Source of the DNA: Candidatus Cloacimonadota bacterium
Lineage (GTDB): Bacteria; Cloacimonadota; Cloacimonadia; G963667145
Length of the DNA stretch: 64,000 nt
Assembly: GCA_963667255.1 (NCBI GenBank)
Contig: OY762940.1
Location: 1,175,702 to 1,239,701, forward strand
Direction: 5' to 3'
A program made the translations under genes and the position numbers. Below the pieces are notes generated by a model, which did not search any database, was not told where the DNA came from, and was given only the letters and a program-made list of their open reading frames with translations. Below, piece after piece: positions 47,530 through 53,215 of the stretch (the first letter of the stretch is position 1; every line of letters starts with the position of its first letter).

Positions 47530-48798
47530 ATGGAGAGAAAGATGAATTTTGATCAAATTAGCAGAGAGAGTGAGTTTTACGGCAACACTTCCGCCGTGGA
47601 ATTGATAGAGAAGTATGGTTCGCCATTGTATGTATATAATGAGAATATTCTGAAAAAACGCTGTCGTGAGATGATGAATCTTGTCAGATATCCGAAGTTT
47701 AAGGTGCATTATTCGGTCAAAGCTAACTCCAACTTGGAGTTAATGAAGATAATCCGCAACGAAGGTCTGTATGTAGATGCGATGTCCCCTGGGGAGATGT
47801 ATGCGGAGCTAAAAGTCGGATTTAAGCCTGAGCAGATTTTGTTTATTTGCAATAATGTGTCCGCTGAAGAGATGAGATTTGCCATAGACAGAGATATCAG
47901 AGTCAGCGTTGATTCCTTGTCTCAACTGGATTTGTATGGACAATTAAATCCCGGTGGAGATGTTTTTGTGAGGATTAATCCTGGAATTGGTGTTGGTCAC
48001 AGCGAAAATGTGATTACCGGTGGCAAGAAAACCAAATTTGGTATAGAGATGAAATCTATCCCCGAGCTCAAAAATATTTTGGCAAAGCATAAACTCAATC
48101 TTATCGGCATCAATCAACACCTCGGTAGCCATTTTATGAGTTGGTTCGAGTATATCAACTCCGTGAATGTTGTTTTGAGGATTGCCCGAGAGTTTGAGGA
48201 TTTGCAGATTATAGATTTGGGTGGTGGCTTTGGTGTGCCCTATCACAAGCAAGACAACGAACAAAGGCTCAATCTTTCCGAACTTGGCAGTGAGCTTAAC
48301 GCTCGACTTTTGCAATGGGCTAACGAATATAATAGAGAAATCGAGTTTCGTGTAGAACCTGGTCGTTATATCGTGGCGGAATGCGGTATTCTGCTTGGCA
48401 CAGTGTTTACCAAAAAAGAGAACGATTATCGGAAATACATCGGGACAAATCTTGGCTTTAACCAATTCAAAAGGAAAGTGATGTATGATTCATATCACGA
48501 TATTGAAATTTATCGCAAAAGCGAAGACATCGACCTCAATGACAGAGAAAAAGTGATTATCGTCGGCGATATCTGTGAATCGGGAGATATCATAGCTTCC
48601 GACCGCTATTTGCCGAAAATCGAAGAAGGCGATATTCTTGGCGTGATGGATGCCGGAGCCTACGGCTTCAGTATGGCATGCAACTACAACAATAGATTGC
48701 GACCAGCTGAGGTTCTCATCGATTCCGAGGGTAATGACAGATTGATAAGAAGACGCGAAACATTTGAAGATTTGATGGCGTGCTTTGTGGAAGAGTAA
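47530..48798 (+). CDS. lysA: diaminopimelate decarboxylase
   Basis: Fold-III PLP decarboxylase. PLP-lysine context (YSVKANSN). GGGFGVPY. C-terminal EPGRYIVAE and CESGD motifs. Confidence 0.85.
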   Translation: MERKMNFDQISRESEFYGNTSAVELIEKYGSPLYVYNENILKKRCREMMNLVRYPKFKVHYSVKANSNLELMKIIRNEGLYVDAMSPGEMYAELKVGFKPEQILFICNNVSAEEMRFAIDRDIRVSVDSLSQLDLYGQLNPGGDVFVRINPGIGVGHSENVITGGKKTKFGIEMKSIPELKNILAKHKLNLIGINQHLGSHFMSWFEYINSVNVVLRIAREFEDLQIIDLGGGFGVPYHKQDNEQRLNLSELGSELNARLLQWANEYNREIEFRVEPGRYIVAECGILLGTVFTKKENDYRKYIGTNLGFNQFKRKVMYDSYHDIEIYRKSEDIDLNDREKVIIVGDICESGDIIASDRYLPKIEEGDILGVMDAGAYGFSMACNYNNRLRPAEVLIDSEGNDRLIRRRETFEDLMACFVEE

Positions 48799-48816
48799 AA
48801 TAGCTGATTAATTTTT

Positions 48817-48851
48817 AAAAAACGGAATTGAAACTCAATTCCGTTTTTTTT
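48817..48851. terminator. strong bidirectional rho-independent terminator between lysA and the low-GC cassette
   Basis: aaaaaacggaattgaaactcaattccgtttttttt. 9-bp perfect stem cggaattga/tcaattccg with A-run and T-run. Confidence 0.75.
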
Positions 48852-48932
48852 GTTATACTTGATTTAGTTTAGATATTTGGGTGGAGGGCGTTATTGGCTG
48901 TTGTATGTAGTTTAGCTTATTATATATTTTAC

Positions 48933-50216
48933 TTACTCTCCCTCATTTAGGTTAGTCTCTCTCAATAAACCTATTTCGCTTGGAATATCAAAATCATCAA
49001 CGGTTTCATTGTCATATAAGAACACAATTTTTTTTCCGCATTTATAAGCATATCCGATTTCAAGAGAGGTTTTTGTTCCTACATATTTGTCAAAGTTGCA
49101 AACTATAATCATGTCACATGTTTCAATTGCTTTTAAGTGAAGTGCTTCAACAGACCAAGTGCAACGGTTAATAATTTTATCATTTTTAAAAAGAATAAAA
49201 CCTTTCTCAGACCCAACCACTTCAGTATTTAATGGACTATCTACAGTAATACCTTGAGTTTTGAGCACGCCAATTAGCTTTGTAATTTTATCAAGTTGTT
49301 TATTAAAACTTCCGCAAATTACAACATTTTTTACCTCTTGAACATTTATTCCATCAATTAAATTTGAGTCTGAGGGAATTATTTTGTTTATCCCATATTG
49401 CATACAAATAGCTTGAGCTATTGCGGAACAAGCTCTTGCTCCATTCATCCAAGCCGGATTATTAGGCATCATATTACGCAAATCAGCAATTGTTATTTCA
49501 GAAAATATACGTTTATTCTGAATACAATAATTATCAATTGTAATCATTGATGGATGATTTTCATCATCAAAAATATTGTTTTTCTCTAAATAATATCCTG
49601 CAACGTTCATATATGTTAATTCTCCACCTGTATATATTGCAGTATCATATCTTCTATCAACAAAAGGAAGCATATTTGAAATATACTCAACTACTTCGCT
49701 TAAAGGAGTTGGGCTGTACTCTTCATTTATCGCGTTATATTTTTTTAGTATTGTTCCAACACCCAAAGATAACATTTTTCGTTCCGTTACGAAACCGTTA
49801 TTGTAAAAAATCAATTCCGTTGTTTTTCCTCCTATATTTATAATCACTAACTTATTCTTATAATCACAATTTCCTATCCATGCTTTTTCCAAATAAAATG
49901 CCTCTAATTCATGTGAAACAATATTAAAAAAAAGTCGAGTCATAGTATAAAATTCTTCAATAAAAGCTTGCTTATTAGTAAGCTCTCTAAAAATTCCTGT
50001 AGCAAACAACTTAGTATTACTACGTGTAAGTGATAATTCTTCTATCGTTTCATTAAAAAACGAGTACATGTTTTCTTTATTCAGACTTGATAAACCTATC
50101 GCTGAGTCAAATTCATCCTTAAAATCAAATGTTTTCGCTTTAATAAGTTTTACTCTTACCCCATCATGTGTATATATTTTTACAGTTGAAGATCCTACAT
50201 CAATTAAATATTTCAT
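48933..50216 (-). CDS. two-domain protein: Ppx/GppA-like ASKHA domain + C-terminal nucleoside 2-deoxyribosyltransferase (NDT/Rcl)-like domain (cassette gene B)
   Basis: ATG 50216 with AAGGA RBS; the ORF-track TTG 50261 is less likely. Ppx/GppA phosphate-1 motif YLIDVGSSTVKIY. Phosphate-2-like VIINIGGKTTELIF. AIYTGGE. C-terminal GTKTSLEIGYAYKCGKKIVFL resembles the DSGTAFEIGYA...GKP motif of NDT-fold enzymes. GC visibly lower than flanking genes. Confidence 0.6.
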   Translation of the reverse strand: MKYLIDVGSSTVKIYTHDGVRVKLIKAKTFDFKDEFDSAIGLSSLNKENMYSFFNETIEELSLTRSNTKLFATGIFRELTNKQAFIEEFYTMTRLFFNIVSHELEAFYLEKAWIGNCDYKNKLVIINIGGKTTELIFYNNGFVTERKMLSLGVGTILKKYNAINEEYSPTPLSEVVEYISNMLPFVDRRYDTAIYTGGELTYMNVAGYYLEKNNIFDDENHPSMITIDNYCIQNKRIFSEITIADLRNMMPNNPAWMNGARACSAIAQAICMQYGINKIIPSDSNLIDGINVQEVKNVVICGSFNKQLDKITKLIGVLKTQGITVDSPLNTEVVGSEKGFILFKNDKIINRCTWSVEALHLKAIETCDMIIVCNFDKYVGTKTSLEIGYAYKCGKKIVFLYDNETVDDFDIPSEIGLLRETNLNEGE

Positions 50217-50253
50217 TTTTTCATCCTTAGTTATTGTTTTTTTCCGTAATAAG

Positions 50254-52371
50254 TTAATCAATATTTTCTATTGGCCAATATTCTTTTGGAATGAATGATA
50301 ATTGCACATCCTCAATTGGCTTTTGCCAAAATGCAATTGTTTTCCTTAAGGCATATGCATAATATATTTCGCATTTTGTCGATTCCCCTATATATCCATT
50401 ATTATATTTATTACATATAAAAAGGACATCACAATCATCTATTGCTGTTAAGTGTTCATACTCTGTGTCGGGAGAAATATCTTTTTTTAACTTTCCCTTT
50501 CGATCAAATTTTGGGCTTAATACCTTAACATCTTTCATTTCTTCCATTTTTTTACTGGCTTTATACAAGTATTTAGTTCCTTTATCATGAGTAGTCCCAC
50601 TAATTACAATATTAAAAACATACGCATTTATATTTGCACTAATAGTTAAATCGTCTTTCGGAATTACTATCTTATTATTTAGCTTATCAAGAATAGTTTC
50701 AATAATTATATGTCCAAATTTGAAGCCATGTAGTCTTTTCACCATTGTTTCATCGTCATACTCTTTTTTTAAGGACTCTAAATAATTTGCAGAAAATAAC
50801 GCTTCTCTATTATGAATTTTATATTCATCTTGAGAAAGACATTGCTCATTTGCATTTTGCTTTAGTCGATATCCCATTTCATTCATAAATTTCAATTCAC
50901 CCTTTAGTATAATCGCTTGATTAATCTTTACTCCATCTAGCGATGATTCTATTTTATTTTCTATAAATTTCTTTATTTTATTAATTGAGTTATCATCCCA
51001 TACTTCCGATGCAATATTAGTGGATACATAAGTTTGAACATCTTTTATCGTTACTAATAAATTGTACTCATGATATTCTTTTCCAGAATAATATAAAATA
51101 TCTGTGCAATGAGAACCTATATTAATTATTGCCGTCCCATCACTTAAATTTCCAAACAAACGATCAATGTTTTCAGTTGTTTTCTCTTTAGAGATAATAT
51201 TAAAATACAGATTTGTTTCTTTATAGAATTTCCGGATAACATCTTTTAACTTTTTAGGCTCATTTTCGTTAAATATTTCCCCAAATCTATAATCTACGAA
51301 AACTTTTCTCAGCATTTGAGAATCATTTTTATGTACTTTCTCTGATTGTAATAAGGATTTTACGCAAGCTATAATTTCATCGAGATGAAAATTGTCTTTA
51401 AAAACATCACAGTTATAGCTTATCATCTCAAGTTCCTTAGAATTATCTTTGTCTATAATTTCAAAAAGACGACATGATGTTGTTCCAATGTTTATAAAGT
51501 AACCTAATGGTCCAGCTACTTTTTTAGGTTTTTTATTCATATTATTTTGTTGTTTTTTTTTTTGCGTAATGCTTCCTGTTGATATGTTTCTTTTTTTGGG
51601 CAATTTATCAAATGCATTTTTTTTTAAAAACACGTGTTCTAATAATGATACAGCTGCCTTTGAAGCCATAATTTGATTTTTTTCTTTGTTCGGATTTTCT
51701 TTATTTACTCCCCAATCACAAATCGCTTTTACAATTATCCATTCGTCCATTCTTGCTTTTTTGCATGCAGCATAAGCCCCACGTCCTTCCATTTCTCCAC
51801 CAATTGCACGTGGTGCATCCTTAAAAAGTTTTTTCTTGTAGACAAGATCATCTACAACTTTATTTCCTGATAGAATCATTCCAAATTCACATTTTAATTT
51901 TCTTGAGCCACTATAGTTCTCCCATGTTTTTGAGTAATTCTTAAAAACTGATAATAATGTTTCTCCTGCCTCTGCTCTTACTCCATCAGATAGGAATTTT
52001 CCATTTGTTATTTTACCACTTTCACAATCTACCATAATTTCTGATATTAAAACATCTCCAATATGTTGCTTAGGGTTTTTTTCATTTCCGTTCTCTTTAC
52101 CAAATGCAATTCCAAGCAAAATTACAGCATCTGGTTCCCACCCTTTAATAGCCGCATTAATTGAAAATAATGCAGCTCCTGTTTTTGCTGTTCCTTTATT
52201 TTGCAATTCAAAATGAATTATATCATAATTCCCTATTTCCCCAACATTATAAAAATTGTTATCATCGGTGGCTTTAGCCCGCTGATTCTTTTCGTAATTA
52301 AAATTTTTACAATTTAGTAATGCATTTGTTTCATGATTGTTCGCCGTTACAAGTAGAAATCGTTTCTTCAT
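50254..52371 (-). CDS. three-domain protein: N-terminal PNP/MTA-nucleosidase-like domain + Ppx/GppA-like ASKHA domain + C-terminal NDT/Rcl-like domain (cassette gene A)
   Basis: ATG 52371 with AGGAG RBS; the ORF-track TTG 52389 would add 6 aa. PNP_UDP_1 signatures: FLLVTANNHETNALL, DAVILLGIAFG, AIGGEMEGRGAYAAC and IIVKAICDWG. Compare MTAN AVEMEATAIAHVC/VVRAISD. Mid-domain GYFINIGTTSCRLF and IINIGSHCTDIL (Ppx/GppA-like). C-terminal GESTKCEIYYAYALRKTIAFW (NDT-like). Confidence 0.6.
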   Translation of the reverse strand: MKKRFLLVTANNHETNALLNCKNFNYEKNQRAKATDDNNFYNVGEIGNYDIIHFELQNKGTAKTGAALFSINAAIKGWEPDAVILLGIAFGKENGNEKNPKQHIGDVLISEIMVDCESGKITNGKFLSDGVRAEAGETLLSVFKNYSKTWENYSGSRKLKCEFGMILSGNKVVDDLVYKKKLFKDAPRAIGGEMEGRGAYAACKKARMDEWIIVKAICDWGVNKENPNKEKNQIMASKAAVSLLEHVFLKKNAFDKLPKKRNISTGSITQKKKQQNNMNKKPKKVAGPLGYFINIGTTSCRLFEIIDKDNSKELEMISYNCDVFKDNFHLDEIIACVKSLLQSEKVHKNDSQMLRKVFVDYRFGEIFNENEPKKLKDVIRKFYKETNLYFNIISKEKTTENIDRLFGNLSDGTAIINIGSHCTDILYYSGKEYHEYNLLVTIKDVQTYVSTNIASEVWDDNSINKIKKFIENKIESSLDGVKINQAIILKGELKFMNEMGYRLKQNANEQCLSQDEYKIHNREALFSANYLESLKKEYDDETMVKRLHGFKFGHIIIETILDKLNNKIVIPKDDLTISANINAYVFNIVISGTTHDKGTKYLYKASKKMEEMKDVKVLSPKFDRKGKLKKDISPDTEYEHLTAIDDCDVLFICNKYNNGYIGESTKCEIYYAYALRKTIAFWQKPIEDVQLSFIPKEYWPIENID

Positions 52372-52508
52372 AAGCCATTCTCCTCTCAAAATATAGTACC
52401 TGTCTATTTAATTTCAAATTAAAATATTTTGCATTTATGTTGTTTTGTTTTTTAATATTTATCTTAATTTCCCTTCCAAATTGTACACAACATTTAAATA
52501 ACCTCAAC

Positions 52509-52544
52509 TGTGTTTATTTATCCAAATTGGGAGGGATAAACACA
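52509..52544. repeat. inverted repeat in the divergent intergenic region upstream of cassette gene A
   Basis: tgtgtttat (52509-52517) and ataaacaca (52536-52544) are perfect reverse complements. The arms extend to tatcc/ggata with a 3-nt bulge. Confidence 0.5.
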
Positions 52545-52675
52545 ATTGCCTTTATTTTCCTTTATATTTTTATTCACAATAAAAAAGTTAAGTTTTCTTT
52601 GTCAACTCATATTTCCTTGACTGATTTTTCCTTTTAATCTTCTTAAAATCACTATCTAAATCAAGGAAAATTTAA

Positions 52676-53215
52676 ATGAATTGTATAGAAATTGCCCTTA
52701 AACACATTCGCCAAGATTTGTGGGATTCGTATTTTGTTCATTCTGTTTTGGTTACGCAGATGTCTTTGGAGATTGCGGAGAATTTGAATTTGGACGAAGC
52801 AATCAAACAGTTTATCCGAGAAGCTGCTATGCTCCACGATATAGGTATCGGAGAAGTGAGTATGGACAAGAAAAATCCGCAAAACAAGCCACCATACATC
52901 ACTCACGGACTCGTTGGTTTTCGGATTTTGAGCGAATTGGGCTACCCCAAGCACGCACTCGTCTGTCGCAATCACATCGGTGTAGGGCTTACCAAGGAGA
53001 TTATCTTGCGGAACGGATTTCCTTTGCCTGCTGAGGATATGACACCATCTACCTTACCTGAAGAGATAATCACTTATGCGGACTTGTTTTTTAGCAAAAG
53101 CAATCCTTTCAAAAAGAGGAGTTTTGCCGAGGTTGTGAAGAAAATAGAAACCTACGGGCAAGAGCAATTAGACAAATTTCATCAACTGCATAAAAAATTT
53201 TCTTCGCTCAAATAA
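52676..53215 (+). CDS. HD-domain phosphohydrolase
   Basis: 179 aa. H...HD motif (AAMLHDIGIG). Downstream His residues (ITHGLVGFRIL, CRNHIGVGL). Host-like GC. Confidence 0.65.
   Translation: MNCIEIALKHIRQDLWDSYFVHSVLVTQMSLEIAENLNLDEAIKQFIREAAMLHDIGIGEVSMDKKNPQNKPPYITHGLVGFRILSELGYPKHALVCRNHIGVGLTKEIILRNGFPLPAEDMTPSTLPEEIITYADLFFSKSNPFKKRSFAEVVKKIETYGQEQLDKFHQLHKKFSSLK

Follow-up and report, generated by a model that had tools for sequence, protein, structure and literature searches.

The DNA analysed here (the window) is a stretch of 64,000 nucleotides from a Candidatus Cloacimonadota genome (GenBank assembly GCA_963667255.1, contig OY762940.1, positions 1,175,702 to 1,239,701), in which two adjacent minus-strand genes, hereafter gene A and gene B, are enclosed by lysA and a gene encoding an HD-domain protein, both on the plus strand (Table 1). 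The pair is probably a horizontally acquired two-gene immune system of the abortive-infection, nucleotide-depletion kind, the specific steps of its action being less certain than this general assignment. The product of gene A begins with a domain of the purine nucleoside phosphorylase (PNP)/methylthioadenosine nucleosidase (MTAN) fold, the predicted effector. It continues with a degenerate actin-like ATPase-fold (ASKHA) domain of the Ppx/GppA type and ends with a domain resembling nucleoside 2-deoxyribosyltransferases (NDT). Gene B encodes a second copy of the latter two domains, which together are called the chassis below.

A preliminary description of this DNA had already located the two genes and proposed a defence function for them. 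Support for that function which goes beyond it comes from the PNP position, where the same chassis can carry members of other established families of immune effectors instead. The alternative that the description named was a nucleotide-salvage or alarmone-processing operon, a metabolic cargo with no immune role, in which the PNP/MTAN domain would recycle nucleosides, the Ppx/GppA domain would process (p)ppGpp, polyphosphate or NTPs, and the NDT domain would exchange bases. All three folds do stem from salvage or alarmone enzyme families, and the evidence bearing on this alternative is given along with each set of results.

Gene B is an intact-looking paralogue of the gene A chassis

Taken alone, the window proteins give Pfam, NCBIfam and PDB sequence matches that are mostly weak or below cut-off. 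Gene B matches Ppx-GppA at 7e-9 and NDT at 2e-4 (Pfam), and gene A matches MTAN (NCBIfam) at 7e-8 and NDT (PF05014) at 0.026, the latter being stronger in chassis relatives, with no other family matches. The domain assignments therefore rest on family profiles and AlphaFold2 (AF2) models. Two family alignments were used, A1 with 46 A-family sequences and A2 with 79 B-family sequences, the latter including B genes that occur without a partner (solo B). Scanned member by member, the B family contains Ppx-GppA in 76 and NDT in 59 of its 79 sequences. The PNP, ASKHA and NDT folds that the preliminary description had read from the letters were all detected by family profiles or predicted structures.

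Residues 289–699 of gene A align colinearly with gene B (BLASTP E=2e-17; hhalign probability 100%, E=1.3e-42, 385 columns). Gene B is a clear paralogue of the ASKHA and NDT-like part of gene A, and this alignment bears out the earlier view that the two genes are paralogues, one of which has acquired an effector-like domain.

The AF2 model of gene B is of high quality by its own scores (predicted local distance difference test, pLDDT, 93.6; predicted template modelling score, pTM, 0.86). Its N-terminal domain has a two-lobed Ppx/GppA-type fold, which also resembles NTPDases and apyrases, and the B-family profile matches Aquifex PPX/GPPA at E=5.6e-16. The motifs YLIDVGSSTVK, VIINIGGKTTE and GTKTSLEIGYAY are present and lie on invariant or near-invariant columns of the family. 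In alignment A2, K13, T73, R77 and E105 are found in 79 of 79 sequences, D6 in 77 and E134 in 76; D6, R77, E105 and E134 align with the motifs of Aquifex PPX/GPPA. The position of the phosphate-2 aspartate is occupied by an invariant asparagine (N127). Profiles, model and motifs agree with the ASKHA assignment first made for gene B.

The ASKHA domain of gene A retains the Ppx/GppA fold (Foldseek E=7e-14 against 1t6d) without the residues that would make it an enzyme. Residue 294, at the phosphate-1 aspartate position (N294), is N, S, Y or H and never aspartate in the 46 sequences; the position of the catalytic glutamate is an invariant threonine (T398), and an equivalent of the arginine of the ATxxxR motif is absent. 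Since none of the Ppx/GppA catalytic residues was encountered in the middle domain across the 46-sequence alignment, this domain is most simply read as a predicted pseudo-enzyme. The statement that the two proteins share the same two domains is therefore right for fold and descent and has to be given up for enzymology. A salvage or alarmone-processing operon is hard to reconcile with one ASKHA copy being a pseudo-enzyme.

The NDT-like domains of both proteins have the flavodoxin-like fold of the NDT type, and the nucleotide N-glycosidases MilB and Rcl are among the structures that match them best. The glutamate of the G-x-x-T-x-x-E-hG-x-A motif is present in 79 of 79 B-family sequences (E386 in gene B) and in 45 of 46 A-family sequences (E668 in gene A). 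Both residues fall within the stretch matched to PF05014 positions 55–112, in matches whose Pfam scores are below cut-off for the window proteins. In LlNDT, the catalytic glutamate nucleophile is E98. Besides the motif glutamate, both domains keep a conserved histidine and aspartate, and H640, C647-D648, G662, T665 and A672 are invariant in the NDT-like domain of gene A.

The PNP domain of gene A

The N-terminal domain of the gene A model matches the MTAN structure 3bl6 (Foldseek E=1e-15, TM score 0.82), and PF01048 is matched by 37 of the 46 A-family members scanned individually. The two motifs on which the PNP/MTAN assignment had originally been based, GGEMEG (residues 191–196) and KAICD (residues 215–219), are on invariant or near-invariant family columns. 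Invariant in the 46 sequences are T9-A10-N11, E14, G87, F90-G91, G191-G192-E193-M194-E195, K215 and C218-D219. D219 aligns with D197 of E. coli MtnN and with D353 of DtcC. Mutation of the latter residue abolishes Detocs defence (doi 10.1101/2023.01.24.525353). A disordered linker follows the domain, and the low pTM of the complete gene A model (0.48, with a pLDDT of 82.4) points to a flexible tether between the PNP and the chassis.

About 45 full-length homologues of gene A are found, at 36–56% identity. PNP domains of the gene A type also occur, at 48–56% identity, on NB-ARC/TPR, NACHT, TIR, HD, pentapeptide and calcineurin proteins; by sequence, the gene A PNP appears to be most similar to the PNP domains of immune proteins of the NOD-like receptor (NLR)/Avs type. 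This family of relatives speaks against a salvage enzyme, the nearest PNP domains being fused to STAND NTPases and TIR domains. When the PNP part is compared with the PADLOC profiles, it matches PDC-M60C at 5e-12 and the CBASS PN-superfamily effector at 2e-7. Rousset et al. 2023 (doi 10.1101/2023.01.24.525353) showed that the PNP domains of this immune type, the Cap17 clade, to which those at the N termini of Avs/NLR proteins belong, act as effectors by ATP/dATP nucleosidase activity.

The chassis carries interchangeable N-terminal effectors

Residues 286–705 of gene A were used as a chassis query against 1.84 billion representatives. The family recovered is small, comprising 29 clusters (50% identity) at E<=1e-30, and its N-terminal modules are diverse. 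PNP is the module of most A-type members. In its place are found a retron type III-A PRTase (P0046; Pfam PRTase-CE, PADLOC 3e-38), SIR2_2 (P0284, 1.3e-20), a caspase of the Peptidase_C14 family (P0278, 3e-15), SMEK_N (P0280 and P0283, about 1e-32, 1.7e-32), a dCMP/cytidine deaminase (P0261, 2e-12) and, as a weak match, TIR_2 (P0265, 3e-5). P0276 combines a calcineurin-like phosphoesterase with PNP, and P0262-P0264 and L016 have unannotated N-terminal domains of about 200–270 residues.

Some A-type forms, of 417–464 residues, have no N-terminal module at all. Where the effector is missing, the A-type gene is directly preceded by another, separate gene. In three such loci (L098:1370-2185, L099:1-828 and L072:4929-5708), the upstream genes, of 259–275 codons, weakly match effectors of the TIR or NDT type (E=1.4e-5 to 4e-3), which suggests, as far as such weak matches go, a split form of the fused architecture.

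The swapped effectors act on unrelated substrates (proteins, NAD, ATP, nucleotides), and a metabolic coupling between the PNP and the chassis is therefore unlikely. Regulation or sensing is most likely what the A-type chassis provides. The exchange also weighs against the salvage alternative: modules of the caspase, SIR2, TIR-like, SMEK and retron-type PRTase kinds would not be expected to take the place of a metabolic PNP.

The pair occupies a variable slot

In a sister genome (locus L097, on a 1.54 Mb contig), blastn aligns both flanks of the pair at 81–82% DNA identity. The alignments end exactly at window positions 48799 and 52674, and synteny is broken at 48799/48800 and 52673/52674. The A+B pair is absent from the corresponding lysA|HD slot of the sister genome (L097:12836-15246), which contains Transposase_mut fragments and a 357-codon gene with a RelA_SpoT domain and a GC content of 0.246. 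The product of this gene matches the PADLOC phage-defence candidate PDC-S33 at 5.7e-20 and, from this match, may be a toxSAS/CapRel-like defence protein. Since the slot of the sister genome holds other cargo, the lysA|HD junction is a cargo hotspot in the lineage. A core salvage function is not what one would expect of a pair that is missing there.

The composition of the slot is in keeping with its borders. GC is 0.297 in the cassette versus 0.383 in the remainder of the window, and GC at third codon positions (GC3) is 0.205 for gene A and 0.206 for gene B versus 0.38–0.47 in eight flanking genes. The high AT content and the small, compositionally foreign island put forward in the preliminary description are thereby confirmed, the island now having exact borders. 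Inside the slot there are only the two genes, A and B, and no element genes; a search of the slot borders revealed no convincing att-like direct repeats or ends of insertion sequences. The HD-domain gene was considered as a third component and rejected: it is present in both genomes, adjoining the EF-G gene in the sister genome, where A and B are absent, and its GC3 of 0.47 is host-like.

Distribution and neighbourhoods of the A+B pair

In all of the 17 distinct paired loci examined, the A-type gene lies directly upstream of the B-type gene. The hosts belong to Firmicutes, Actinomyces, a gammaproteobacterium (Thiotrichaceae) and the archaeal methanogen Methanocorpusculum; named among them are Diplocloster hominis, Agathobacter, Acutalibacteraceae, Oscillospiraceae, Clostridia metagenome-assembled genomes (MAGs), Enterococcus larvae, Actinomyces sp., a Thiotrichaceae MAG and Methanocorpusculum. 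In 13 of 14 paired loci, the GC content of the pair is below that of the flanking DNA (mean difference -0.076), the extreme being -0.155 in a host of 57% GC.

Most of the longer contexts are conjugative or integrative elements, or contain transposases or known defence genes. At L002, the neighbours are a Gabija-like pair (OLD-TOPRIM ATPase and UvrD helicase), a tyrosine integrase and ParAB. At L005, a conjugative element, they are an Eco57I-type restriction-modification system, HNH, HipA, Abi_2 and conjugation-associated genes. L095 contains AbiEii, a methyltransferase, a pair made of PRTase-CE and an ORC/CDC6-like protein, ParAB, a giant Eco57I/SNF2 protein and a serine recombinase. L013 has a Lit-like Peptidase_U49, L008 a TrwC relaxase and a type IV secretion system (T4SS) coupling protein, and L007 transposases, and in Diplocloster hominis (L001) the insertion lies within a locus for polysaccharide biosynthesis. 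Single-copy core genes in conserved housekeeping synteny would look different: A+B is patchy across phyla, archaea included, and is found on mobile elements or beside defence genes. Patchiness, mobility and deviant GC in nearly all hosts are also hard to explain for a salvage operon.

Two observations on these neighbourhoods concern genes other than the pair. The stand-alone PRTase-CE gene of L095 (PADLOC retron III-A PRTase, 3e-35) adjoins the gene for an ORC-CDC6-like AAA+ protein (L095:1658-4592), on the same integrative element and beside AbiEii and the methyltransferase; the two look like a separate two-gene defence candidate. At L001, an SLFN_AlbA_2/HATPase_c_4 protein is encoded next to the pair (L001:8263-9594); the PADLOC profiles that it matches, at 1.9e-12, are pAgo-associated (Aga).

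Solo B genes and other B variants

A scan of 185,579 species genomes gave 250 relatives of gene B, and 80 loci were fetched. These comprise 8 pairs, about 50 full-length solo B genes and about 20 genes that are truncated or encode an ASKHA domain only (about 300 residues). The solo B proteins (about 420 residues, L022-L070) are from Patescibacteria of the candidate phyla radiation (CPR; Saccharibacteria, Parcubacteria, WWE3 and others), from DPANN archaea and from some MAGs labelled Gammaproteobacteria. They are 37–45% identical to gene B of the window, with no A-type neighbour within 7 kb. As alignment A2 includes them, the solo B genes keep all the catalytic columns.

The GC content of solo B genes is near that of the host (mean difference -0.018, standard deviation 0.029), and their neighbours are housekeeping genes: adk, map, recJ, yqeY and transporters. 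No conserved operon was found for the CPR/DPANN solo B genes, the best neighbour family being present in 13 of 71 loci. I infer that the solo B genes are resident enzymes, possibly of salvage, and that they likely represent the ancestral state of the chassis. The salvage alternative, disfavoured for the A+B pair, may therefore apply to them, with their host-like composition and housekeeping neighbours in salvage-dependent CPR and DPANN organisms.

Other forms of B were seen as well. About 20 loci (L075-L094) encode B-like proteins of about 300 residues that consist of the ASKHA domain without the NDT-like domain, in Woese- and Pacearchaeota, Bacilli, Muribaculaceae and others. At the other extreme of length, B variants of 537–606 residues (L011:3522-5147, P0122-P0125 and P0131) carry a duplicated NDT-like domain. 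PF27219 is a precomputed Pfam match on two of these long variants, and part of the B family may have been curated recently, given this match.

Proposed mechanism

In the working scheme, gene A would be the effector subunit, its PNP domain, with an intact active site, being tethered by the flexible linker to a chassis whose ASKHA domain is catalytically dead, and gene B an ancestral-type paralogue of this chassis that has kept the Ppx/GppA catalytic residues and the NDT-like active site. The gene B protein would act as sensor or switch by binding or turning over a phosphorylated nucleotide whose level shifts upon infection. Control over A could be exerted in either of two ways: A and B might assemble into a hetero-oligomer by way of the ASKHA domains, the NDT-like domains or both, or B might make a nucleotide-derived ligand that is read by the paralogous chassis of A. 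Characterised Ppx/GppA enzymes and NDTs form dimers. The NDT-like anti-phage effector of retron Ec86 dimerises through its NDT domains (doi 10.1101/2023.08.16.553469). Upon activation, the PNP domain would cleave the N-glycosidic bond of ATP and dATP, as Cap17 and DtcC do, and the resulting drain on the adenylate pool would arrest the infected cell.

Several points weigh against this immune reading. An infection sensor is not recognisable. The family-A PNP profile is no nearer to DtcC (30.8 bits) or to a partial Cap17 (20.2 bits) than to the housekeeping MTANs, its scores being 51.6 bits for SaMTAN and 36.9 bits for EcMtnN; the E. coli MTAN chains 1jys and 1z5n, at 32.4 bits in the PDB profile search, agree with the EcMtnN score. 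What suggests a place for the family-A PNP in the immune clade is architecture. Since the CPR/DPANN solo B genes are host-like and have housekeeping neighbours, the chassis may stem from metabolism or act in it. Finally, the neighbourhoods were surveyed in about 10 long contexts, and many contexts of the pair are conjugative elements, on which genes for anti-defence and addiction are found as well.

A more specific proposal can be put forward tentatively, as an idea that is rather doubtful and yet worth spelling out. The ASKHA and NDT-like pair would be a previously unrecognised immune signalling chassis, in which B, upon infection, makes or trims a nucleotide-derived small molecule, using phosphohydrolysis and either NDT-type base exchange or N-glycosidic cleavage. 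The dead paralogue in A, descended from the same enzyme, would read this molecule or co-assemble with B and then release whatever effector it carries, and the whole system would have arisen from a resident CPR/DPANN nucleotide enzyme. If true, the system would be without precedent as an ASKHA-fold immune switch and would exemplify a receptor that descends from the very enzyme making its signal.

Alternative explanations

Among the alternatives, the one that survives best, unlikely as it is, keeps the defence function and changes the role of B. In such a catalytic cascade, all the enzymatic domains would jointly demolish the nucleotide pool, B being a co-effector. The ASKHA domain of B would strip phosphates from (d)NTPs or from ribose-5'-triphosphate, the NDT-like domains would cleave (d)NMPs to base and sugar phosphate, and the PNP would cleave ATP, with regulation left to another cue or to expression control. 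The active-site evidence is compatible with this: both NDT-like domains keep the invariant or near-invariant glutamate and the motif around it, their structural matches include the N-glycosidases MilB and Rcl, and the B ASKHA domain keeps the Ppx/GppA catalytic residues and resembles NTPDases and apyrases. Since effector-less A+B pairs exist, the chassis pair must moreover have an activity of its own. However, the same chassis also carries caspase, SIR2 NADase, SMEK and PRTase modules, whose substrates are foreign to a nucleotide-degradation cascade, and the ASKHA domain of A is catalytically degenerate. As constitutive activity would be lethal, a switch would still be needed.

It is less probable still that the pair is a selfish module of mobile elements, serving either in addiction, as a toxin–antitoxin-like couple in which B restrains a toxic A and the element is thereby stabilised, or in anti-defence. 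In the anti-defence version, the pair would destroy nucleotide signals of host immunity (cyclic nucleotides, ADP-ribose derivatives, (p)ppGpp) and so aid the establishment of the element; phosphohydrolase and N-glycosidase activities could indeed degrade signalling nucleotides. The repeated linkage of the pair to conjugative or integrative elements is what such a module would lead one to expect: in one place it adjoins ParAB, in another it is flanked by a relaxase and a coupling protein, and elsewhere it accompanies conjugation-associated genes of the DUF3846/YodL/LPD28 type. Conversely, the window cassette is in a chromosomal hotspot, with element genes absent inside the slot, and the alternative occupant of this slot in the sister genome is itself a defence candidate. 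The swapped caspase, SIR2 and NLR-type PNP modules are cell-killing defence effectors, not signal sponges or signal-cleaving enzymes. Toxin–antitoxin-like behaviour and abortive-infection defence are in any case not mutually exclusive.

The salvage or alarmone-processing operon is the least probable of all, and very improbable for A+B, in spite of a PNP profile that scores as well against MTAN as against DtcC and of solo B genes lying next to adk, map and recJ.

Gene structure and other features of the locus

The open reading frames of the two genes stand as first described, except for the start of gene B. The gene B frame extends over 48933-50261, and the database record P0121 (427 aa, 100% identity), the sole database copy of gene B, begins at the ATG at 50216 (MKYLIDVG). 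In homologous loci, B begins 17–60 nucleotides after A. Because of the P0121 start and the B starts in homologous loci, gene B was taken as starting at 50216, with a 37-nucleotide spacer after A, and the 8-nucleotide A/B overlap was rejected. The product of gene A is identical to the database protein P0241. When clustered at 90% identity, P0241 falls under a 33-residue JGI fragment labelled "putative transposase"; this grouping is probably an artefact, either of the clustering or of the annotation.

Table 1. Features of the lysA|HD locus (window coordinates)
Feature	Position	Strand	Remarks
lysA	47530-48798	+	
Variable slot at the lysA|HD junction (inserted island)	48800-52673	.	Borders from blastn against L097 and GC
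Bidirectional intrinsic terminator	48817-48849	.	Perfect 15-bp stem, 3-nt loop, A-run upstream, T-run downstream
Gene B	48933-50216	-	427 aa; Ppx/GppA-type ASKHA, catalytically intact-looking, and NDT-like domain
Gene B residues 294-427	48936-49337	-	NDT/Rcl/MilB-like domain
Gene B residues 1-293	49338-50216	-	Ppx/GppA-type ASKHA
Gene A	50254-52371	-	705 aa from ATG; PNP/MTAN fold, degenerate Ppx/GppA-fold ASKHA, NDT-like domain
Gene A residues 581-705	50257-50631	-	NDT-like domain; hhalign to gene B NDT-like domain
Gene A residues 286-580	50632-51516	-	Ppx/GppA-fold ASKHA without catalytic residues, predicted pseudo-enzyme
Gene A residues 262-285	51517-51588	-	Disordered linker, pLDDT <50
Gene A residues 1-261	51589-52371	-	PNP_UDP_1/MTAN-fold domain, predicted effector; Foldseek, conserved site
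AT-rich region upstream of gene A, within the slot	52372-52673	-	Presumed promoter/regulatory region
HD-domain gene	52676-53215	+	

The terminator on the lysA side, noted in the preliminary description, is common to the convergent lysA and gene B and can work both ways, because an A-run and a T-run flank its stem. Within gene B, 21 nucleotides (49807-49827) are 90% identical to the 3' arm of the terminator with its T-run (48831-48851), probably by chance. Upstream of gene A, sigma-70-like sequences occur on the minus strand at 52417-52390 and 52605-52576, as consensus matches only. The same region contains an imperfect inverted repeat (52496-52557) with 31-nucleotide arms that are 74% complementary and have no spacer; it could be an operator, an RNA hairpin or a chance product of AT-richness. 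As to non-coding RNAs, riboswitches and retron RNA, Rfam gave nothing above noise.

Comparison with known systems

That the pair belongs to no named system, as the preliminary description had it, agrees with the present searches. PADLOC-DB v2.0.0 has no system-level match for both proteins; only the PNP part of A matches, and gene B matches only ThsB, at E=0.03. In the literature searched, of which subscription journals form a limited part, the architecture (ASKHA/Ppx plus NDT chassis) is not described, and the eLife papers of the Aravind laboratory that were consulted mention no Ppx, ASKHA or NDT partner.

The closest likeness on the effector side is to PNP proteins of the Cap17/DtcC type. 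Immune PNP ATP/dATP nucleosidases occur in CBASS, Detocs, Avs/NLR, short pAgo and DRT8 systems (Rousset et al. 2023, doi 10.1101/2023.01.24.525353). As in gene A, a PNP_UDP_1/MTAN fold is used there as a detachable terminal effector module, the catalytic aspartate (D219 here, D353 in DtcC) and the E-M-E motif are conserved, and the genes are in defence neighbourhoods. The partners differ: CD-NTase/SLOG, histidine kinase/receiver, STAND NTPase, pAgo or reverse transcriptase in the Cap17/DtcC type, as against a pseudo-ASKHA and NDT-like chassis with an active-type paralogue adjacent. Unlike Detocs, with its kinase DtcA and the receiver proteins DtcB and DtcC, the two-gene slot has no HisKA/HATPase or receiver domains. 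Unlike CBASS of the Cap17 type, which combines a CD-NTase with an effector bearing a cyclic-oligonucleotide sensor (TPALS/SAVED), it has no CD-NTase, either inside or among the neighbours, and the match to the PN-superfamily effector profile is confined to the PNP part.

The likeness to retrons concerns other domains. Retron Ec86/Eco1 has an NDT-like domain with a conserved glutamate, a tendency to dimerise and an anti-phage role, and the PRTase effector profile of type III-A retrons matches the N-terminal module of P0046. A reverse transcriptase open reading frame and retron non-coding RNA are absent from the slot and its vicinity, however, and its NDT-like domains are fused to ASKHA, not to a winged helix. 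Thoeris (ThsB with TIR, ThsA with SLOG) differs in that neither TIR nor SLOG membership was found in A or B, the ThsB score of gene B included, and in that A and B are paralogues of each other.

With the Ppx/GppA enzymes (Aquifex 1t6c/1t6d, E. coli GppA, Ppx), gene B shares the two-lobed ASKHA fold over its N-terminal 290 residues, together with the phosphate-1 aspartate, the ATxxxR arginine, the catalytic glutamate E105 and the phosphate-2 glutamate E134. It differs from them by N127 in place of the phosphate-2 aspartate and by an NDT-like domain in place of the C-terminal helical and HD-like domains, and the gene A copy is without catalytic residues altogether. If the immune function is confirmed, Ppx/GppA-type chemistry (alarmone, polyphosphate or NTP phosphohydrolysis) would be tied to immune activation, and the PNP ATP-nucleosidase effector family would reach a new context. 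The proposed evolutionary path would lead from a solo CPR/DPANN enzyme, through duplication and loss of catalysis in one copy, to the accretion of toxic effectors. A family so small and yet so diverse in architecture makes a compact system for studying the assembly of immune modules, and the lysA|HD slot, where the variation of the lineage is confined to a defined site, is useful for finding further cargo.

In its organisation, the cassette most resembles Avs/NLR proteins, in which one conserved chassis is likewise combined with interchangeable N-terminal effectors (PNP, SIR2, TIR-like, caspase, calcineurin and others). In contrast to these, A and B have no STAND (NB-ARC/NACHT) P-loop NTPase and no repeat sensor; their chassis combines an ASKHA-fold pseudo-phosphatase with a Rossmannoid domain of the NDT-like kind, and a second, paralogous gene is needed. 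The cassette is most likely a modular, effector-swapping, nucleotide-depleting type of defence with an undescribed regulatory chassis, one that would, if confirmed, be added to those of Avs, CBASS, Thoeris, Detocs and retrons.

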